Source: Escherichia coli
GTDB taxonomy: Bacteria; Pseudomonadota; Gammaproteobacteria; Enterobacterales; Enterobacteriaceae
Assembly (NCBI RefSeq): GCF_003334305.1
Contig: NZ_QOWS01000017.1
Length of the DNA: 64,000 nucleotides
Strand: one strand, 5' to 3'
Every line of letters starts with the position of its first letter. Positions within the stretch are counted from its first letter, which is position 1. Under the pieces are notes generated by a model. It made no database searches. It saw nothing but the letters and a program-made list of their open reading frames with translations, and had not been told where the DNA came from. A program made the position numbers and the translations under genes. Below, piece by piece: positions 3,130 through 38,181 of this stretch.

Positions 3130-3878
3130 TTACAGGTGCATTCAGTTTCCTTAGTAAACCGGAAGTAAATAAGATACGTAGTACATATCAATAAAGGTTA
3201 AACGAGATTAAGTTTAATTATTTTCGATTGGGCTTAAATTTATGTTTTTTTCCCGATGAGTGTCAATATGTGAACGGAAAAGGAATTCAATGGTTAAGTC
3301 AATATTTAGAAAAACTGAAAATATTGCTTTTTTGATAAGAAGAAAAAGACATTTGGTTTCATAAGGTTATTGGCAATATAACGTTCAATTCTTACTTGCA
3401 TTTTATATTGGTCAGGAACTTTGCCCTGAAGTGTTAGGAATAGTCTTAATGCGCTGTGTGATGGACTAGTAAAAAAAACAAGTTTTAAGGGTAAGGGATA
3501 GAATATAAAACTATAATGAGCTGTCATTGAAGATGATTTGCCAATCAGTAAGAAATTTTAATGGATTAACATGCCGCACAAAATGGTTATAGGTGTTCAT
3601 TACAATAAGTGATGGAAAATTGAACGGGCGTATGTACGTCATCTGTTCGGTAAGACCCCCAAGAGCCAGATTAAGTGAAGTTAAACGAAGGCTGCCAGCT
3701 GTCACAGGAACGATGGCCTCTTTGTCAGGGCACTGAGTGCAGTTATCTGTGCGCGTTACTCTAACTGGCACTCGAACGTCGGCGATGGGCTTACCGGTGG
3801 ATCAAACTGTTCCTGTGGCGTAAACGTTTTTATGTTAGTACCAACAGATTTACCACATTTATCATCTTAACAGTTTGA

Positions 3879-30361: not shown

Positions 30362-32395
30362 ATGACAGACCTTTCACACAGCAGGGAAAAGGACAAAATC
30401 AATCCGGTGGTGTTTTACACCTCCGCCGGACTGATTTTGTTGTTTTCCCTGACAACGATCCTGTTTCGCGACTTCTCGGCCCTGTGGATTGGCCGCACGC
30501 TGGACTGGGTTTCTAAAACCTTCGGTTGGTACTATCTACTGGCGGCAACGCTCTATATTGTCTTTGTGGTCTGTATCGCTTGTTCGCGTTTTGGTTCGGT
30601 GAAGCTCGGGCCAGAACAATCCAAACCGGAATTCAGCCTGCTGAGTTGGGCGGCGATGCTGTTTGCTGCCGGGATCGGTATCGACCTGATGTTCTTCTCC
30701 GTAGCCGAACCGGTAACGCAGTATATGCAGCCGCCGGAAGGCGCGGGACAGACGATTGAGGCCGCGCGTCAGGCGATGGTCTGGACGCTGTTTCACTACG
30801 GCTTAACCGGCTGGTCGATGTATGCGCTGATGGGCATGGCGCTCGGATACTTTAGCTATCGTTATAATTTGCCGCTCACCATCCGCTCGGCGCTGTACCC
30901 GATCTTCGGTAAACGGATTAACGGGCCGATAGGGCACTCAGTGGATATTGCAGCGGTGATCGGCACCATCTTCGGTATTGCCACTACGCTCGGTATCGGT
31001 GTGGTGCAGCTTAACTATGGCTTGAGCGTACTGTTTGATATTCCCGATTCGATGGCGGCAAAAGCGGCACTGATCGCCTTGTCGGTGATAATCGCCACGA
31101 TCTCTGTCACCTCCGGTGTCGATAAGGGGATTCGTGTGTTATCGGAACTTAACGTTGCGCTGGCGCTGGGATTGATCCTGTTCGTATTGTTTATGGGCGA
31201 CACCTCGTTCCTGCTTAATGCGCTGGTGCTGAATGTTGGCGACTATGTGAATCGCTTTATGGGCATGACGCTCAACAGTTTTGCCTTCGACCGTCCAGTT
31301 GAGTGGATGAATAACTGGACGCTCTTCTTCTGGGCATGGTGGGTGGCATGGTCGCCGTTTGTCGGCTTGTTCCTGGCGCGTATCTCGCGTGGGCGTACCA
31401 TTCGCCAGTTCGTGCTGGGCACGTTGATTATTCCGTTTACCTTCACGCTGTTATGGCTCTCGGTGTTCGGCAATAGCGCGCTGTATGAAATCATCCACGG
31501 CGGCGCGGCATTTGCCGAGGAAGCGATGGTCCATCCGGAGCGCGGCTTCTACAGCCTGCTGGCGCAGTATCCGGCGTTTACCTTTAGCGCCTCCGTCGCC
31601 ACCATTACTGGCCTGCTGTTTTATGTGACCTCGGCGGACTCCGGTGCGCTGGTGCTGGGGAATTTCACCTCGCAGCTTAAAGATATCAACAGCGACGCCC
31701 CCGGCTGGCTGCGCGTCTTCTGGTCGGTGGCGATTGGCCTGCTGACGCTCGGCATGCTGATGACCAACGGGATATCCGCGCTGCAAAACACCACGGTGAT
31801 TATGGGGCTGCCGTTCAGCTTTGTGATCTTCTTCGTGATGGCGGGGTTGTATAAATCTCTGAAGGTAGAAGATTACCGCCGTGAAAGTGCCAACCGCGAT
31901 ACCGCGCCGCGACCGCTGGGGCTTCAGGATCGCCTGAGCTGGAAAAAACGTCTCTCGCGCCTGATGAATTATCCGGGCACGCGTTACACTAAACAGATGA
32001 TGGAGACGGTCTGTTACCCGGCAATGGAAGAAGTGGCGCAGGAGCTGCGGTTGCGCGGCGCGTACGTGGAGCTAAAAAGCCTGCCGCCGGAAGAGGGACA
32101 ACAGTTGGGGCATCTGGATTTGTTGGTGCATATGGGCGAAGAACAAAACTTTGTCTATCAGATTTGGCCGCAGCAATATTCGGTGCCGGGCTTTACCTAC
32201 CGCGCACGTAGCGGTAAATCGACCTACTACCGGCTGGAAACCTTCCTATTAGAAGGCAGCCAGGGCAACGACCTGATGGACTACAGCAAAGAGCAGGTGA
32301 TCACCGATATTCTTGACCAGTACGAGCGGCACCTTAACTTTATTCATCTCCATCGTGAAGCGCCGGGCCATAGCGTGATGTTCCCGGACGCGTGA
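30362..32395 (+). CDS. betT: BetT high-affinity choline transporter (BCCT family), 677 aa
   Basis: Twelve-transmembrane BCCT-type protein with a long cytoplasmic C-terminal tail; divergent from betI. Confidence 0.9.
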   Translation: MTDLSHSREKDKINPVVFYTSAGLILLFSLTTILFRDFSALWIGRTLDWVSKTFGWYYLLAATLYIVFVVCIACSRFGSVKLGPEQSKPEFSLLSWAAMLFAAGIGIDLMFFSVAEPVTQYMQPPEGAGQTIEAARQAMVWTLFHYGLTGWSMYALMGMALGYFSYRYNLPLTIRSALYPIFGKRINGPIGHSVDIAAVIGTIFGIATTLGIGVVQLNYGLSVLFDIPDSMAAKAALIALSVIIATISVTSGVDKGIRVLSELNVALALGLILFVLFMGDTSFLLNALVLNVGDYVNRFMGMTLNSFAFDRPVEWMNNWTLFFWAWWVAWSPFVGLFLARISRGRTIRQFVLGTLIIPFTFTLLWLSVFGNSALYEIIHGGAAFAEEAMVHPERGFYSLLAQYPAFTFSASVATITGLLFYVTSADSGALVLGNFTSQLKDINSDAPGWLRVFWSVAIGLLTLGMLMTNGISALQNTTVIMGLPFSFVIFFVMAGLYKSLKVEDYRRESANRDTAPRPLGLQDRLSWKKRLSRLMNYPGTRYTKQMMETVCYPAMEEVAQELRLRGAYVELKSLPPEEGQQLGHLDLLVHMGEEQNFVYQIWPQQYSVPGFTYRARSGKSTYYRLETFLLEGSQGNDLMDYSKEQVITDILDQYERHLNFIHLHREAPGHSVMFPDA

Positions 32396-32967
32396 TTGTT
32401 TTTGCATAAAACCGCGCCATGTCTGCATATGGCGCGGGAATCATTGACTCGCTGTAAAAAATTATGCATATATTATATATGATTGTCATGTCATATCCTG
32501 AAATTCCTCTTGTATCACTTCATGACTTTATATTTTATTAATTAACGATTTTATTTTGTATTAGCTGAATGGATTCAGCCCTATAGAGTCATATATTTAT
32601 TAATAAGACGATTCTTATATTTGGATACCTAATAAGAGTTACCACTTTTACCGTCTGTATATTAAATGTATTCCTCCTGTTTTTGTTTATATTTTGAGTT
32701 GATTTGAGTTCCTGGATACATATAATGCGCAGGTATTAGAGACTGGGAGGAATGTAATGATAAAGTTAAGAGTGTTAACTTAAAATAAGTTTTCAGTAGT
32801 AACTTGCTATTTTATTACCCTCTGAACTACATACTCAGATATGTGGTTGCCAATGCTATGCAAAATTTTTGAATTTTTATATGCGATGAACAGTAACCAG
32901 AATGGCATTTAATGCGTTGCTGTTTATGCAATCTTGGTTTTATTTGGATGTATTGCTGGAGATTGTG

Positions 32968-35900
32968 ATGAATAAAATATATCGGCTAAAGTGGAACAGG
33001 TCCCGTAACTGTTGGAGCGTCTGCTCGGAGCTGGGGAGCAGAGTAAAAGGAAAAAAGTCCCGGGCTGTTTTAATTAGCGCGATAAGTTTATATTCATCTC
33101 TGGTATTCGCCGATGATGTCATCGTAAACCAGGATAAAGCTATTGATTTTGGCAAAGAGAACCAGAGCATCGATTACCGTATTACGGTGACTGACAATGC
33201 CAATCTGGTAATCAATACGACAGATACTTCCCGTCCGCGTCTGACTCTCGCTTCTGGTGGTGGGTTGGATATTACCGGAGGAAAGGTAACAATCAATGGC
33301 CCGCTTAACTTTTTGCTGAAAGGTACGGGGTTCCTGAATGTCTCCAATGCTGGCAGCGAGTTATATGCTGATGATTTGTATGAGTCAAACTCAGGCATGA
33401 GACATGATCAAGGCTATTTTAATGTCTCCAATGGCGGCAAAATTCATGTTAAGGGCACCAGTCGTCTGACTTATACGCAGGGGAATGTAAGCGGCGAAGG
33501 TAGTCAGGTAAATGCAGGGACCTTCTTTATGGGCGTTTACGGCGGATATGGCGGTAATCAGTTCCTGTCGGTTAATAACGGTGGTGAAGTTAATGCTCGT
33601 GAACATATTAGCCTGGGTTATTACGACCAACGTTCTGATACAACATTAGTCGTATCAGATGGAGGTAAAATATCCGCACCGAAAATTAGTTTAAGCACCA
33701 ACTCTGAGTTAGCGTTAGGTGCACAGGAAGGAAGTGCTGCGAAGGCTGCAGGGATTATTGATGCCGAAAAAATTGAGTTTGTGTGGGCAAAGACATCCGA
33801 TAAGAAAATCACCTTAAACCACACGGATAAAAACGCGACTATTTCCGCGGATATTGTCAGTGGCAGCGAGGGCCTGGGCTATATCAATGCGCTCAATGGC
33901 ACGACTTACTTAACCGGTGATAACTCTGCCTTTAGTGGTAAAGTCAAAATTGAGCAAAATGGCGCTTTAGGGATCACCAAAAATATAGGTACAGCAGAGA
34001 TCAACAACCGCGGGAAATTACACCTGAAGGCTGACGATAGCATGACCTTTGCCAATAAGATTTCCGGCAATGGTACAATAAGTATCGACAGTGGGACAGT
34101 GGCACTGACCGGCAATAACTATGCATTCAGCGGATATATTGATGTCGCTTCTGGTGCTGTCGCGGTTATTTCTGAAGACAAGAACATCGGCCGTGCGGAC
34201 CTGGATGTTGATGGCAAACTGCAAATCAATGCCAATAAAGATTGGGTATTTGATAACGATCTTCAAGGTAGAGGTATTGTTGAAATAAACATGGGGAATC
34301 ACGAATTCTCCTTCGATGAGTTTGCTTATACAGACTGGTTCCAGGGTTCACTGGCGTTCCAGAACACGACATTTAACCTGGAAAAGAATGCTGAGTTTCT
34401 GCAGAGAGGCGGGATCACTGCGGGTCAGGGAAGCCTGGTAACAGTGGGTAAGGGCGCTCACTCCATTAGCACTTTGGGATTCTCCGGCGGAACCGTTGAT
34501 TTTGGTGCCCTGACAGCAGGTGCACAGATGACAGAAGGGACGGTCAACGTTAGTAAAACGCTGGATTTGCGCGGCGAGGGTGTGATTCAGGTTTCTGACA
34601 GTGACGTTGTAAGCTCAGTATCTCGTGATATTGACTCTGCGTTATCGCTCACTGAAGTCGATGATGGTAACAGCACCATTAAGTTGGTTGATGCGCAAGG
34701 TGCGGAAGTTCTGGGCGATGCGGGCAATCTGCAATTGCAGGATAAAAATGGGCAAATCCTCTCCAGCAGTGCCCAACGTGATATTCAGCAGAATGGGCAA
34801 AAAGCGGCCGTCGGCACTTACGACTATCGTCTGACGAGTGGGGTAAACAATGACGGTCTGTATATCGGTTACGGCCTGACCCAGCTTGATTTACACGCTA
34901 CCGACAGCGATGCTCTGGTGCTGAGCTCTAACGGTAAAAGCGAGAATGCCGCCGATCTCAGCGCAAAGATTACCGGCAGTGGTGACCTGGCATTCAGCAG
35001 CCAGAAGGGTCAGACCGTATCGCTTTCTAACAAAGACAACGACTATACCGGTGTTACCGATCTGCGCAGTGGGACGCTTTTGTTGAATAACGATAACGTG
35101 TTGGGTAATACCCATGAACTGCGTCTGGCGGCAGAGACTGAACTGGATATGAATGGTCACAGCCAGACCGTGGGCACGCTCAATGGCAGCGCCGATTCAC
35201 TGCTGAGCTTAAATGGCGGCAGTCTGACGGTTACCAACGGGGGCACTTCAACCGGTTCGTTAACGGGGAGCGGAGAGCTGAATATTCAGGGCGGCACGCT
35301 GGACATCGCGGGCGATAACAGCAACCTGACAGCGAATGTGAACATTGCTAATTCGGCTAATGTCCTGGTAAGTCATGCGCAGGGATTGGGTAGCGCAAAC
35401 GTTGAGAACAACGGTACCCTGGCGTTGAATAATAGCGCTGAAAAAAGAGCGGCTGCGTCTGTGAATTACACCCTGGGCGGCAATCTGACCAACAACGGTA
35501 CGCTGATGACCGGAATGTCAGGACAGCAAGCTGGCAATGTGTTAGTGGTGAAGGGGAACTACCACGGTAATAACGGTCAACTAGTAATGAATACGGTACT
35601 GAATGGCGATGACTCAGTAACCGATAAATTGGTTGTCGAGGGCGATACTAGCGGCACGACTGCCGTTACGGTGAATAACGCTGGCGGTACAGGTGCGAAA
35701 ACCCTTAACGGTATCGAACTTATCCATGTAGACGGTAAGTCTGAGGGCGAATTTGTTCAGGCTGGTCGTATCGTTGCGGGGGCGTATGACTACACTCTCG
35801 CGCGTGGACAAGGGGCAAATAGTGGTAACTGGTATCTGACCAGCGGCAGTGATTCTCCTGAACTGCAGCCGGAGCCAGACCCGATGCCGAATCCGGAGCC

Positions 35901-36951
35901 AAACCCGAATCCAGAGCCGAACCCTAACCCGACACCTACGCCGGGTCCGGATCTGAATGTGGATAATGACCTGCGACCGGAGGCGGGTAGCTACATTGCG
36001 AACCTTGCAGCAGCGAATACAATGTTCACCACGCGTCTGCATGAGCGTCTGGGTAATACGTACTATACCGACATGGTGACGGGTGAGCAGAAACAAACCA
36101 CTATGTGGATGCGCCATGAAGGTGGTCATAATAAATGGCGTGATGGCAGCGGCCAGCTGAAAACCCAAAGCAATCGCTATGTTCTGCAACTGGGAGGCGA
36201 TGTCGCGCAGTGGAGCCAAAACGGCAGCGACAGCTGGCATGTTGGGGTCATGGCGGGATATGGCAACAGCGACAGCAAAACCATTTCCTCGCGAACCGGT
36301 TATCGTGCAAAAGCGAGTGTGAACGGATATAGCACCGGCCTCTATGCCACCTGGTATGCCGATGACGAGTCGCGTAATGGCGCGTATCTCGACAGTTGGG
36401 CGCAGTACAGCTGGTTTGATAACACAGTGAAAGGGGATGACTTACAAAGTGAATCCTATAAATCAAAAGGATTTACCGCTTCACTGGAAGCTGGATACAA
36501 ACACAAATTAGCTGAATTTAATGGCAGCCAGGGAACGCGTAATGAATGGTATGTTCAGCCGCAAGCACAGGTTACCTGGATGGGAGTCAAAGCCGATAAG
36601 CACCGCGAAAGCAACGGAACCCTCGTTCATAGCAACGGTGATGGCAATGTTCAAACCCGACTTGGCGTAAAAACCTGGCTGAAGAGCCACCATAAAATGG
36701 ATGACGGTAAATCCCGCGAGTTCCAGCCGTTTGTAGAAGTGAACTGGCTGCATAACAGTAAGGATTTCAGCACCAGTATGGATGGCGTGTCCGTCACTCA
36801 GGATGGAGCCCGAAATATTGCTGAGATAAAAACCGGGGTGGAAGGACAGCTAAATGCCAACCTGAATGTCTGGGGGAATGTGGGCGTTCAGGTTGCCGAT
36901 AGGGGATATAATGACACCTCTGCAATGGTTGGCATTAAGTGGCAATTCTGA
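32968..36951 (+). CDS. ehaA: AIDA-I-type autotransporter adhesin EhaA, 1327 aa
   Basis: Extended signal peptide region (MNKIYRLKWNRSRNCWSVCSELGSR...), long repetitive passenger, Pro-rich linker (PEPDPMPNPEPNPNPEPNPNPTPTPGP) and C-terminal beta-barrel ending ...MVGIKWQF; locus directly after betT. Start placed at the Met 22 codons into the track ORF. Confidence 0.75.
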   Translation: MNKIYRLKWNRSRNCWSVCSELGSRVKGKKSRAVLISAISLYSSLVFADDVIVNQDKAIDFGKENQSIDYRITVTDNANLVINTTDTSRPRLTLASGGGLDITGGKVTINGPLNFLLKGTGFLNVSNAGSELYADDLYESNSGMRHDQGYFNVSNGGKIHVKGTSRLTYTQGNVSGEGSQVNAGTFFMGVYGGYGGNQFLSVNNGGEVNAREHISLGYYDQRSDTTLVVSDGGKISAPKISLSTNSELALGAQEGSAAKAAGIIDAEKIEFVWAKTSDKKITLNHTDKNATISADIVSGSEGLGYINALNGTTYLTGDNSAFSGKVKIEQNGALGITKNIGTAEINNRGKLHLKADDSMTFANKISGNGTISIDSGTVALTGNNYAFSGYIDVASGAVAVISEDKNIGRADLDVDGKLQINANKDWVFDNDLQGRGIVEINMGNHEFSFDEFAYTDWFQGSLAFQNTTFNLEKNAEFLQRGGITAGQGSLVTVGKGAHSISTLGFSGGTVDFGALTAGAQMTEGTVNVSKTLDLRGEGVIQVSDSDVVSSVSRDIDSALSLTEVDDGNSTIKLVDAQGAEVLGDAGNLQLQDKNGQILSSSAQRDIQQNGQKAAVGTYDYRLTSGVNNDGLYIGYGLTQLDLHATDSDALVLSSNGKSENAADLSAKITGSGDLAFSSQKGQTVSLSNKDNDYTGVTDLRSGTLLLNNDNVLGNTHELRLAAETELDMNGHSQTVGTLNGSADSLLSLNGGSLTVTNGGTSTGSLTGSGELNIQGGTLDIAGDNSNLTANVNIANSANVLVSHAQGLGSANVENNGTLALNNSAEKRAAASVNYTLGGNLTNNGTLMTGMSGQQAGNVLVVKGNYHGNNGQLVMNTVLNGDDSVTDKLVVEGDTSGTTAVTVNNAGGTGAKTLNGIELIHVDGKSEGEFVQAGRIVAGAYDYTLARGQGANSGNWYLTSGSDSPELQPEPDPMPNPEPNPNPEPNPNPTPTPGPDLNVDNDLRPEAGSYIANLAAANTMFTTRLHERLGNTYYTDMVTGEQKQTTMWMRHEGGHNKWRDGSGQLKTQSNRYVLQLGGDVAQWSQNGSDSWHVGVMAGYGNSDSKTISSRTGYRAKASVNGYSTGLYATWYADDESRNGAYLDSWAQYSWFDNTVKGDDLQSESYKSKGFTASLEAGYKHKLAEFNGSQGTRNEWYVQPQAQVTWMGVKADKHRESNGTLVHSNGDGNVQTRLGVKTWLKSHHKMDDGKSREFQPFVEVNWLHNSKDFSTSMDGVSVTQDGARNIAEIKTGVEGQLNANLNVWGNVGVQVADRGYNDTSAMVGIKWQF

Positions 36952-36973
36952 TCTGAATAATGAGTAAAAGGAG

Positions 36974-37018
36974 AGAGAGCCGAACGGGAGATAATTCGGC
37001 TCTCTGTGTCATTTTCTT
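36974..37018 (+). terminator. Intrinsic terminator downstream of ehaA
   Basis: Stem agagagccgaa (36974-36984) / ttcggctctct (36995-37005) followed by a T-rich run (gtgtcattttcttg). Confidence 0.6.
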
Positions 37019-37092
37019 GCAGCCAGCTTTATCAGTCAGAGTGAAGACTCGCAGATTTAGCTGGCGCACAAGATTTAATCAAGGTGTGTTCA

Positions 37093-38181
37093 ATGGCTTC
37101 GCATGATTTGAGTGTTTTTTTGGAAGAGTTCGGGGCAACGGTGAATTTGACGTTGCCTGGTATCGTGTCCGAAAAAGAACGGCTTTTACTCAAGCTGCTA
37201 ATGGAGGGAATGTCGGTTACAGAAATCTCACAGTACAGAAATCGCAGTGCAAAGACAATTTCACATCAAAAGAAGCAGCTGTATGAAAAACTAGGCATCC
37301 AGAGTGATATTACCTTCTGGCGGGATATCTTTTTTCAATATCATCCGCAAGTCATCAGTGGCACGGGAAATAAAAATAATTTTTATATCCCTGATAACCG
37401 TTGTCACCATATCGTCACGCCTGAAGCCATCAGTCTGGCGTTGGAAAACCACGAATTCAAACCGTGGATCCAACCGGTTTTCTGCGCGCAGACTGGGGTA
37501 CTGACGGGCTGTGAGGTACTTGTCCGCTGGGAACATCCACAAACGGGAATTATCCCACCGGATCAGTTTATTCCTCTGGCGGAGTCATCCGGTCTTATTG
37601 TCATAATGACCCGCCAACTGATGAAACAGACTGCGGATATTCTGATGCCGGTAAAACATTTGCTGCCGGACAATTTCCATATTGGCATCAACGTCTCGGC
37701 GGGTTGTTTTTTGGCAGCGGGATTTGAAAAAGAGTGTCTGAACCTGGTTAAGAAATTAGGTAACGATAAAATCAAGCTGGTTCTCGAGCTAACGGAACGT
37801 AATCCTATTCCGGTAACGCCAGAAGCCAGAGCGATATTTGACAGCCTTCATCAGCACAACATTACCTTTGCGCTGGATGACTTTGGTACGGGTTATGCGA
37901 CCTATCGTTACTTGCAGGCGTTCCCGGTCGATTTTATTAAGATCGATAAGTCATTTGTGCAAATGGCGAGTGTCGACGAAATCTCCGGTCATATTGTGGA
38001 CAATATTGTCGAACTAGCGCGTAAGCCTGGTCTGAGTATCGTGGCGGAAGGGGTAGAAACCCAGGAGCAGGCGGATTTAATGATCGGTAAAGGCGTTCAC
38101 TTTTTGCAGGGCTATTTGTACTCTCCGCCAGTACCGGGTAATAAATTTATCTCTGAATGGGTAATGAAAGCAGGTGGTTGA
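37093..38181 (+). CDS. pdeL: PdeL (YahA) c-di-GMP phosphodiesterase with LuxR-type HTH and EAL domain, 362 aa
   Basis: N-terminal LuxR helix-turn-helix (LLMEGMSVTEISQYRNRSAKTISHQKKQLYEKLGI) and C-terminal EAL domain (ELTERNP, DDFGTGYATYRYL); start taken at the ATG at 37093. Confidence 0.9.
   Translation: MASHDLSVFLEEFGATVNLTLPGIVSEKERLLLKLLMEGMSVTEISQYRNRSAKTISHQKKQLYEKLGIQSDITFWRDIFFQYHPQVISGTGNKNNFYIPDNRCHHIVTPEAISLALENHEFKPWIQPVFCAQTGVLTGCEVLVRWEHPQTGIIPPDQFIPLAESSGLIVIMTRQLMKQTADILMPVKHLLPDNFHIGINVSAGCFLAAGFEKECLNLVKKLGNDKIKLVLELTERNPIPVTPEARAIFDSLHQHNITFALDDFGTGYATYRYLQAFPVDFIKIDKSFVQMASVDEISGHIVDNIVELARKPGLSIVAEGVETQEQADLMIGKGVHFLQGYLYSPPVPGNKFISEWVMKAGG

Follow-up and report, generated by a model that had tools for sequence, protein, structure and literature searches.

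The adhesin gene ehaA lies between betT and pdeL in the stretch of Escherichia coli DNA analysed here (64 kb in length, in the following referred to as the window). It is the known ehaA gene of O-island 15, and both the gene and the features of its protein have been described before. The 572-bp spacer ahead of it is probably the counterpart, in the ehaA haplotype, of the pdeL regulatory region of E. coli K-12: judged by sequence, a Cra operator and the core -35 and -10 elements of a pdeL-type promoter are present there. From this resemblance we infer that ehaA may be controlled by Cra and H-NS and that its transcripts may extend into pdeL. Such a link between the DNA upstream of ehaA and the pdeL promoter appears to be unreported in the searchable literature.

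The ehaA locus

According to the RefSeq annotation, the gene order is betT, ehaA, pdeL. The main features of the locus are:

32412..32437, no strand assigned: GC-rich hairpin directly past the betT stop (inverted repeat CCGCGCCAT/ATGGCGCGG)
32436..37078, plus strand: haplotype-specific segment, equivalent to O-island 15 of O157:H7, with ehaA as the sole gene inside
32968..36951, plus strand: ehaA coding sequence (1327 aa, AIDA-I-type monomeric autotransporter adhesin)
37093..38181, plus strand: pdeL, encoding a c-di-GMP phosphodiesterase and transcription factor with LuxR-type HTH and EAL domains (RefSeq; 141 nt downstream of ehaA)

Since betT ends at 32395 and the ATG of ehaA is at 32968, the distance of 572 bp given by an earlier, sequence-only reading of this DNA is exact. 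The name ehaA is confirmed by DNA matches of 100% identity that RefSeq calls 'autotransporter adhesin EhaA', and near-identity together with synteny identifies the gene as an ehaA orthologue. In enterohaemorrhagic E. coli O157:H7, EhaA (also Z0402 or AIDA-15) is the product of a gene on O-island 15 (PMC8565820, citing Wells et al., 2008). There, the same gene occupies the same betT/pdeL locus on an island of ~4643 bp, with the same domain order and with protein clusters that are 99% identical. The allele studied here is a non-O157 one; by comparison, the O157 spacer is longer by 1 nt and 97.7% identical, and identity amounts to 99.3% in the linker region.

Similarity to K-12 ends at 32435 and restarts at 37078, which delimits a segment of the published OI-15 size (~4643 bp; PMC8565820). 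Its left edge is marked by the hairpin behind betT, up to which ehaA-negative E. coli still have the same sequence; genomes of the latter kind, including K-12 and PMV-1, match only the first 40–42 nt of the spacer. The full spacer was found in 1399 of 5426 complete E. coli genomes (~26%). In E. albertii, the locus is collinear from about 32446–32534 through ehaA-pdeL-yahB-yahC.

The open frame of ehaA spans 32902–36951 and thus reaches back to another in-frame ATG at 32902, from which translation would add 22 residues ahead of the signal peptide. We regard the probability of this start as close to negligible: it is without a Shine-Dalgarno sequence, whereas GGAG sits 6 nt ahead of 32968; the Pfam ESPR model begins at the M of MNKIY; E. 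albertii has ATA at the upstream position and an indel that breaks the frame; and the RefSeq annotation of identical alleles takes the ATG at 32968 (MNKIYRLKW...).

Domain architecture of EhaA

32968..33114, plus strand: extended signal peptide of residues 1–49, made up of the ESPR and a classical signal peptide (Pfam PF13018)
35482..35799, plus strand: AC_1/pertactin-like autochaperone domain, residues 839–944 (Pfam PF18883)
35866..35949, plus strand: (X-Pro)14 linker QPEPDPMPNPEPNPNPEPNPNPTPTPGP, with an 18-nt tandem repeat at 35887–35924
36103..36882, plus strand: autotransporter beta-barrel domain, residues 1046–1305 (Pfam PF03797, E = 3.7e-47)

The extended signal peptide that had been recognized by eye is borne out by a match of residues 1–38 to the Pfam ESPR model PF13018 (E = 2e-9), in keeping with the Sec signal of a type Va autotransporter, and the N-terminus recurs in E. 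albertii and in more distant homologues. Cleavage likely occurs after VFA, a site read from the sequence and not from a prediction tool. For the passenger, only weak matches to PATR repeats were obtained (E = 0.012–4.9), and the surface location of EhaA is taken from the literature (PMC8565820). The autochaperone, with which the passenger ends C-terminally, is identified by AC_1 (PF18883, E = 3.5e-28 and 1e-28) and Pertactin (E = 2e-7), and it aligns to the IcsA structure 3ML3 (E = 5e-28) as well as to AIDA-I 4MEE. The translocator scores 415 bits on TIGR01414, against a cut-off of 16. An alignment with the AIDA-I transport unit 4MEE (E = 8e-94) spans residues 1001–1327 and includes the helix and the 12-strand barrel. 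Taken with the IcsA autochaperone structures (3ML3, 5KE1), the β1 autochaperone, the α-helix and the 12-strand barrel all align.

EhaA belongs to the type Va autotransporters of the AIDA-I family: its extended signal peptide would mediate passage through Sec, a β-helical passenger would be displayed at the cell surface, and the transport unit consists of the autochaperone, a 28-residue X-Pro spacer, the α-helix and the 12-strand barrel.

The proline-rich linker

The linker at the passenger/translocator junction had been described as a run of imperfect proline-rich repeats, and this description holds, with the tract at 35866–35949 consisting in part of an 18-nt tandem repeat. By Tandem Repeats Finder, the repeated unit measures 18 nt at 35887–35924 (2.1 copies, 90% matches) and 12 nt at 35899–35932 (2.8 copies). 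The tract is located between the autochaperone and the barrel-plugging helix, ahead of the barrel. In AIDA-I (4MEE), only 7 residues separate autochaperone and helix, where EhaA has ~40, including (X-Pro)14. Most likely, the X-Pro tract serves as a stiff, extended spacer.

The further suggestion that the repeats could vary in length by slippage is correct, but such variation is rare. A single length is shared by 1381 of the 1393 genomes surveyed; in 11, the linker is altered in frame by 12 or 18 nt, and the remaining genome is a recombinant. The 11 variants differ by whole units (+18, +12, -12 or -18 nt), all inside the coding sequence and in multiples of 6 nt. The linker is thus not invariant across strains, yet its variation is marginal, and its occasional length shifts probably arose by slippage or unequal recombination of the 12- and 18-nt units. 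It could be argued that the repeat is a contingency locus for frequent length or antigenic variation of EhaA, since it is a tandem DNA repeat, since variants of all four kinds occur in unrelated lineages, and since the linker length is 6 to 46 residues in the homologues, with E. albertii-type proteins covering 28 to 46. We consider this highly improbable, because length variation is so rare. In addition, the unit is present in only about two imperfect copies, and related strains carry the same variant, which implies that the changes are inherited rather than frequently arising; as they are always in frame, they do not permit on/off switching. With neither frequent polymorphism nor frameshifts or altered promoter spacing, the allele survey rules out the linker as a high-frequency switch.

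The AT-rich spacer and its promoter elements

The region ahead of ehaA is indeed very AT-rich, as the sequence-only reading had observed: its G+C content is 0.316 (32396–32967), compared with 0.49 for the whole window, and the part at 32438–32967 (0.30) has the second-lowest value among 530-bp stretches in the 64 kb. The following elements were recognized in it and behind ehaA:

32564..32579, no strand assigned: Cra (FruR) box GCTGAATGGATTCAGC, a perfect palindrome with 15 of 16 bases as in the K-12 pdeL Cra box
32602..32619, no strand assigned: PdeL-box-like palindrome AATAAG-N6-CTTATA, one mismatch to the core AATAAGTTTAGTCTTATT of the K-12 Cra-independent PdeL box
32699..32726, plus strand: sigma-70 promoter (-35 TTGATT, 16-nt spacer, -10 TATAAT; 10 of 12 consensus bases)
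32733..32967, plus strand: predicted 5' untranslated leader of ~235 nt, placed from the promoter position, with Shine-Dalgarno GGAG at 32958–32961
36974..37005, plus strand: 12-bp hairpin past the ehaA stop, followed by GTGTCATTTTCTT; stem conserved in E. albertii

The Cra box is the single match to the pattern GCTGAANNNNTTCAG in the 64 kb, where 0.03 would be expected, and E. albertii has it too, as do further ehaA alleles of E. coli. The PdeL-box-like palindrome, 23 nt away, is likewise the only such site in the window, and with two mismatches it is also present in E. albertii; it counts against this match that it was spotted before the comparison with K-12 and that 0.26 such sites would be expected per 64 kb genome-wide. 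As shuffled sequence yields at least as many promoter-like sites as the spacer does, the case for the sigma-70 promoter rests on conservation and not on the scan. Three ehaA alleles of E. coli agree in both hexamers and in the 16-nt spacing, as do E. albertii and a homologue of 68% identity that lies at a different locus; K-12 pdeL provides a sixth sequence, one base off (-35 TTGATC). From this promoter, transcription is predicted to start near 32731–32734, such that ehaA would be transcribed from ~32733 with a 5'UTR of ~235 nt.

For the leader itself, the fold z-score is only -2.2, and Rfam covariance models of riboswitches and other cis-regulatory leader RNAs returned no match with E <= 1 in 32200–37300. 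E. albertii does not share any of the leader ORFs. The reading of the region as a 'long regulated leader or promoter' finds support and can be narrowed down to the conserved Cra box, the PdeL-box-like palindrome and the sigma-70 promoter, 240–400 nt before the ATG, with regulation inferred from homology. In vivo, expression of ehaA varies 9.3-fold with condition.

Comparison with the K-12 pdeL promoter

In K-12, the pdeL (yahA) promoter comprises a Cra box, Cra-dependent and Cra-independent PdeL boxes, and is silenced by H-NS, being derepressed in an hns mutant. These elements have been used experimentally in the form of CB and CDB oligos and of CB- and CDB- reporter strains; the Cra box served as an EMSA oligo and was scrambled in the CB- strain AB2400, and the promoter copy lies within a fragment to which RNA polymerase is recruited together with Cra and PdeL (bioRxiv 10.1101/2021.10.01.462762).

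The K-12 betT-pdeL spacer is otherwise unrelated to that of the window, but aligns exactly at the Cra box and the promoter. Besides the near-identical Cra box, the -35, the -10 and the 16-nt spacer correspond, the distance from Cra box to promoter is similar (119 nt in the ehaA spacer, 122 nt in K-12), both regions are AT-rich (G+C 0.30 and 0.34) and pdeL is found downstream in both. The ehaA haplotype differs in that a 4-kb adhesin gene separates promoter and pdeL. The K-12 pdeL 5'UTR (~330 nt) is unrelated and has no ehaA remnant, and the distal PdeL box of K-12, which has no positional counterpart, and yahV are absent from the ehaA haplotype. Next to the Cra box, the ehaA spacer carries a full PdeL-type palindrome, where K-12 has the Cra-dependent half-site, of which the spacer keeps only 7 of 14 positions; the extent of the K-12 Cra-independent PdeL box was deduced from a figure legend and oligo positions. 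PdeL itself has diverged at its N-terminus (over the first ~300 nt, its gene shares only 71–90% identity with the K-12-type allele) and may therefore differ in DNA specificity.

The spacer would thus hold a module of Cra box, adjacent PdeL-type palindrome and sigma-70 promoter, whose K-12 homologue is activated by Cra and PdeL and silenced by H-NS. By analogy, ehaA may be activated by Cra and silenced by H-NS; the latter dependence is plausible only because the K-12 homologue is derepressed in the hns mutant.

Discussion

Phase-variable autotransporter adhesin genes that likewise have a long stretch of regulatory DNA ahead of them are agn43/flu, with its Dam/OxyR GATC sites, and upaE, with an invertible promoter element (PMC6083910). 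The ehaA spacer shows the hallmark of neither. It contains no GATC site in 32396–32967, which rules out a Dam/OxyR switch of the agn43 type, and its promoter is without long flanking inverted repeats; the repeats present are AT-rich, no longer than 16 nt and due to chance, which speaks against an invertible switch of the fimS/ipuS type. No invertase gene is nearer than the hyx locus at ~7 kb, and the one there is a pseudogene.

Alternatively, the spacer might be no more than horizontally acquired, H-NS-coated filler in which Cra box and promoter persist as inactive relics, with ehaA having a short leader from a promoter near its ATG. Its low G+C of 0.30, which is still reduced in the 5' third of ehaA (0.45), would fit this, as would a weaker promoter-like site at 32757–32786; moreover, the searchable literature yielded neither an experimental start site nor Cra, PdeL or H-NS data for ehaA. 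The pattern of conservation makes this unlikely. The E. albertii upstream DNA is ~62% identical overall, but the Cra box, the block at 32604–32650 and the promoter are conserved. The supposed relics are thus the best-conserved parts of the spacer, whereas the ATG-proximal 32746–32945 is only 47–64% conserved. With the otherwise unrelated K-12 spacer, nothing but these two elements is held in common, and their spacing is preserved. Such confinement of conservation is expected of constrained regulatory sites.

The promoter might drive ehaA alone, with termination at the hairpin (36974–37005) and separate regulation of pdeL from a promoter of its own that escaped recognition, a scenario to which we assign a substantial, if minor, probability. 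The hairpin stands right behind the stop, and E. albertii keeps the stem despite changes in the loop; besides, a 4-kb adhesin gene and a regulator gene would form an unusual operon. On the other hand, the U-tract behind the stem is weak (GUGUCAUUUUCUU), which makes read-through into pdeL plausible, and the hairpin might terminate only weakly or serve to stabilise the 3' end. No sigma-70-like promoter was found on either strand in 36000–37100, the 1.1 kb upstream of pdeL, and the position of a PdeL-type palindrome ahead of ehaA is easiest to understand if the autoregulation of pdeL has been retained. Co-transcription of ehaA and pdeL is therefore possible: some transcripts would read through the hairpin into pdeL and thereby keep the positive feedback loop of PdeL intact.

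On this basis, we tentatively put forward a bolder idea, which we think may well not hold: that the bistable, c-di-GMP-sensing PdeL/Cra switch promoter drives an ehaA-pdeL operon, with EhaA and PdeL being switched on together and bimodally. If so, display of EhaA would depend on Cra, as in gluconeogenic, slow growth, and would be antagonised by H-NS. This would apply to E. albertii and to the approximately one quarter of E. coli that have ehaA, O157:H7 and further Shiga-toxin lineages among them. EhaA would then be the first adhesin target for the transcription factor PdeL, and low c-di-GMP would be linked to the expression of an aggregation and biofilm adhesin.

The ehaA gene and its non-coding upstream region

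The betT gene ends at 32395, and within the long open reading frame at 32902-36951 the EhaA protein starts at the ATG of MNKIYRLKWNRSRNCWSVCSELGSR at 32968. We regard this as the real translation start because it is preceded by GGAG at a distance of 6 nt, because the Pfam model of the extended signal peptide (ESPR) starts at its methionine, because RefSeq also uses it for identical alleles, and because E. albertii lacks the in-frame ATG at 32902, having ATA there and a frame-breaking indel; we rejected this upstream ATG as a start. The non-coding gap is therefore exactly 572 bp, as the sequence-only reading had stated. Its description of this DNA as very AT-rich was borne out as well: the spacer has a G+C content of 31.6% (30% without its first 42 nt), compared with 49% for the whole window, and is the second most AT-rich 530-bp stretch of the 64 kb. 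The most AT-rich one (G+C 0.24, 25648-26177) lies just before betA. It follows a second autotransporter locus about 7 kb upstream of the ehaA locus (~20462-26200 with the AT-rich stretch), which comprises hyxB (20462-22759), hyxA, hyxR (23716-24510) and a tyrosine DNA-invertase pseudogene (24782-25402). The identity of the gene as ehaA is clear from RefSeq, where matches with 100% identity across the linker region carry the name ‘autotransporter adhesin EhaA’.

A Cra box and core promoter shared with pdeL

Identity between E. coli and E. albertii is ~60-65% in the spacer and 80-90% in the coding sequence. Three conserved blocks stand out in the spacer:

Conserved blocks of the betT-ehaA spacer
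32564-32579: block 1, the palindrome GCTGAATGGATTCAGC, a Cra box
32604-32650: block 2
32690-32730: block 3, holding TTGATT-16 nt-TATAAT at 32699-32726

The hexamer pair in block 3 is the best sigma-70 match of the region, but a consensus promoter scan alone is uninformative here (4 sites versus 3.7 expected). More telling is the comparison with the K-12 locus (L005), whose spacer aligns only at blocks 1 and 3, that is, at the Cra box and the promoter, which lie at nearly equal distances from each other (119 nt in the window, 122 nt in K-12). The two Cra boxes are identical at 15 of 16 positions, and the pattern GCTGAANNNNTTCAG matches only once in the 64 kb, at the Cra box, where 0.03 matches are expected. 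In an alignment of six sequences, the hexamers and their spacing are conserved, with TTGATC as the -35 element of K-12, and the palindrome is absent from one distant homologue only. E. coli W carries a promoter identical to that of the window.

In K-12, these elements belong to the regulatory region of pdeL, which encodes a c-di-GMP phosphodiesterase and transcription factor. The oligonucleotide and strain tables of a study of this region (bioRxiv 10.1101/2021.10.01.462762) list a ‘CB CDB’ EMSA oligo, TGCTGAATGGATTCAGTCTTAATGAGTGGG (with small OCR errors), for the Cra box (CB) and the PdeL box that depends on Cra (CDB), together with a CB- reporter in which GCTGAATGGATTCA is scrambled, a CDB- reporter, and a primer for the RNA polymerase recruitment fragment that ends just beyond the same TATAAT. 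The study oligos map to L005:3373-3401 and 3511-3550. Cra binds the K-12 site with a Kd of 49 nM, PdeL binds adjacent to it in a Cra-dependent manner and also to a distal palindromic box, and both Cra and PdeL are required for transcription and RNA polymerase recruitment at pdeL (bioRxiv 10.1101/2021.10.01.462762). The regulatory regions of K-12 pdeL and of ehaA thus have the Cra box and the core promoter in common, and the spacer carries what are, judged by alignment, homologues of the validated pdeL elements. The sequence-only observations hold, and their interpretation, including the ‘long regulated leader or promoter’, is partly borne out and can be stated more specifically.

A counterpart of the PdeL box is less evident. 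The palindrome AATAAGACGATTCTTATA (32602-32619) lies 23 nt away from the Cra box, is kept in E. albertii and has one mismatch to the core of the presumed K-12 distal box, TTCAATAAG-N6-CTTATTTAA, which we deduced from a figure legend and primer positions; no other such site exists in the window. This match is weaker evidence, since the palindrome was spotted before the comparison with K-12, 0.26 matches are expected per 64 kb, the K-12 proximal PdeL half-site is just half conserved in the window, and nothing there corresponds in position to the K-12 distal box.

A 68%-identical EhaA homologue (P0006) on a metagenome contig has the same -35 and -10 elements at a similar distance from its ATG (L016:2647-2775). 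As this gene occupies an unrelated locus and has neither a pdeL behind it nor a Cra box, its promoter suggests that the core promoter travels with the adhesin gene.

Other types of control found little footing in the spacer. Dam/OxyR-type regulation was rejected because there are no GATC sites, and an invertible element or long repeats because only short AT-rich chance matches were seen. An Rfam scan of 32200-37300 (E <= 1) gave no match, the fold of the predicted 5'UTR is unremarkable (z = -2.2), and none of the small spacer ORFs is conserved in E. albertii.

Two haplotypes between betT and pdeL

Among 5426 complete E. coli genomes, the whole 572-bp spacer is present in 1399, at 97.6-100% identity. 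About 3600 genomes that lack ehaA share just the first 40-42 nt downstream of the betT stop codon, a piece that terminates in a hairpin at 32412-32437. Similarity to K-12 ends at 32435 and restarts 14 nt upstream of the pdeL ATG, at 37078, and the non-matching span of ~4643 bp has the size of O-island 15. In its place, K-12 has a betT-pdeL spacer of 874 bp that is otherwise unrelated and holds the small gene yahV; this spacer type is present in 3656 genomes. It falls into two sub-types ~7% apart (compared over L005 3040-3860), one counting ~1700 genomes (>=99% identity to K-12) and the other ~1725 (90-95%). The annotation of yahV is confined to the K-12-like sub-type, and in several genomes IS1 is inserted in the ehaA-negative spacer.

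That K-12 arose from the ehaA arrangement by simple deletion is contradicted by its spacer and 5'UTR, in which neither tblastn nor relaxed blastn detected remnants of ehaA. A recent insertion of O-island 15, in turn, is contradicted by E. albertii. Its EhaA orthologue (86% protein identity) is part of a collinear block, ehaA-pdeL-yahB-yahC, whose left neighbour differs, and DNA similarity covers nearly all of the upstream region, from 32534 with standard BLAST or from about 32446 with relaxed scoring. The collinear block and the upstream similarity show that the ehaA arrangement is older than the split between the two species, and that O-island 15 is an old alternative haplotype which E. coli shares with E. 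albertii. The left neighbours of the E. albertii gene (L012/L013) are an aldo-keto reductase and a LysR regulator rather than the bet operon. EhaA-like proteins at 52-68% identity are found at other loci, without pdeL. In the assembly of strain HH45 (L006, NZ_CP116411.1; window 32396-37189), the ehaA locus is apparently decayed: the first 278 nt of the spacer remain, including the Cra box, the promoter region is gone, and only scattered ehaA fragments precede an intact pdeL.

The ehaA-pdeL junction

pdeL starts at 37093, 141 nt downstream of the ehaA stop codon. Directly behind this stop codon lies a 12-bp hairpin (36974-37005) with poor U-tracts on both strands, whose stem is kept in E. albertii while the loop is changed; it may be a terminator, an RNA 3'-end stabilizer or a processing site. 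A simple scan of both strands of 36000-37100, confined to consensus-type sites, found no sigma-70-like promoter from which pdeL could be transcribed independently.

The ehaA-haplotype pdeL allele, named only ‘EAL domain-containing protein’ in RefSeq, shares 71-90% identity with the K-12-type allele in the first ~300 nt (the 5' third, 37093-37400) and 94-99% thereafter, and this step places the haplotype boundary inside pdeL. The amino acid changes are concentrated in residues 1-24 and 83-103, on either side of the helix-turn-helix region, and the DNA-binding properties of this PdeL may differ.

Domain architecture of EhaA and its Pro-rich linker

EhaA has been described as an adhesin and biofilm factor; ehaA is the only gene of the 4643-bp O-island 15 of O157:H7 (PMC8565820), and the EhaA translocator is in use as a commercial-style surface-display scaffold (PMC6922575). 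Pfam identifies the following regions, including the previously proposed extended signal peptide:

Pfam regions of EhaA
Residues 1-38: ESPR extended signal peptide (E = 2e-9)
Residues 839-944: autochaperone, AC_1/Pertactin
Residues 963-999: Pro-rich low-complexity stretch
Residues 1046-1305: autotransporter beta domain (E = 4e-47)

The solved AIDA-I transport unit (4MEE, E = 8e-94) and the IcsA autochaperone both align with the C-terminal 498 residues of EhaA. In the 4MEE alignment, the autochaperone is separated from the barrel-plugging helix by 7 residues in AIDA-I and by ~40 in EhaA, so the repeats had been placed accurately at the passenger/translocator junction. The gene and the features of its protein are already known and ordinary for the family; as gene, extended signal peptide and Pro-rich linker are all textbook for AIDA-type autotransporters, the sequence-only reading as written adds little.

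The tract QPEPDPMPNPEPNPNPEPNPNPTPTPGP, (X-Pro)14, spans 35866-35949. Tandem Repeats Finder detects an 18-nt unit (x2.1, 35887-35924) and a 12-nt unit (x2.8, 35899-35932). The tract had been proposed to vary in length by slippage. We compared it across the full set of 5426 complete RefSeq genomes of E. coli, of which 1393 carry the region, querying in turn with the window allele, a +18 allele and a -18 allele, so that length variants rank first.

Linker length in 1393 E. coli genomes
Window length: 1381/1393 genomes
+18 nt: 4 genomes (O103, two O111:H11, one bovine isolate)
+12 nt: 1 genome (in a pseudogene, inactivated for an unrelated reason)
-12 nt: 3 genomes (three different sequences)
-18 nt: 3 genomes (two O157:H7, one environmental isolate)
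Recombinant: 1 genome (strain 06-00048)

In the alignments, the variants reflect gain or loss of whole units; slippage or unequal recombination does occur repeatedly, and always in frame, but the linker is nearly fixed in length. With length changes in <1% of genomes, we rejected the tract as a contingency locus. Among more distant sequences, the position is very plastic, with 6 to 46 residues between the conserved WYLTS and LRPE motifs of homologues. E. albertii-type proteins (L012/L013; proteins P0003, P0004 and P0007) have 28, 32 or 46 residues, depending on (Thr-Pro)n copy number, a far greater variation than among E. coli alleles.

The partial match in strain 06-00048 (L011, NZ_CP015229.1 394592-395498; window ~35900-36300) was rejected as a length variant, as it is a mosaic allele. 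It is identical to the window until the middle of the tract, continues with another linker (…PNPEPNPTPNPTPEPTPEPTPVPDQTLDND) and has a translocator ~85% identical to that of the window; the same PEPTPEPTPVPDQTLDND ends the linker of protein cluster P0002 (89% identity overall, 1329 aa). The Pro-rich tract is therefore a junction at which passenger and translocator modules recombine.

A model for ehaA regulation

In the model that we derive from these comparisons, ehaA transcription would begin near 32733 and give a 5'UTR of ~235 nt, with Cra as activator and H-NS as silencer. Some transcripts may extend into pdeL; with such read-through, the autoregulatory loop of PdeL would be retained and EhaA would become an output co-regulated by the c-di-GMP switch. 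That the promoter serves ehaA under Cra/H-NS control seems to us reasonably probable, while the version with an ehaA-pdeL operon and bistability is tentative and rather doubtful. The searchable literature yielded nothing on the start site of ehaA or its regulation by H-NS or Cra, and no paper that links pdeL, Cra or H-NS regulation to ehaA; the only expression datum for ehaA found in it was an in vivo induction of 9.3-fold.

The non-obvious result is thus the shared Cra/pdeL promoter module and the order promoter-ehaA-pdeL, which constitute a testable hypothesis rather than a demonstrated mechanism. With ehaA lying behind the same Cra box and promoter, expression of the adhesin may follow central-carbon flux, H-NS and possibly the c-di-GMP switch. 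The authors of the K-12 study asked whether PdeL has targets other than itself and why it is coupled to Cra (bioRxiv 10.1101/2021.10.01.462762); for pathogenic lineages, the present comparison offers a concrete and cheaply testable answer.
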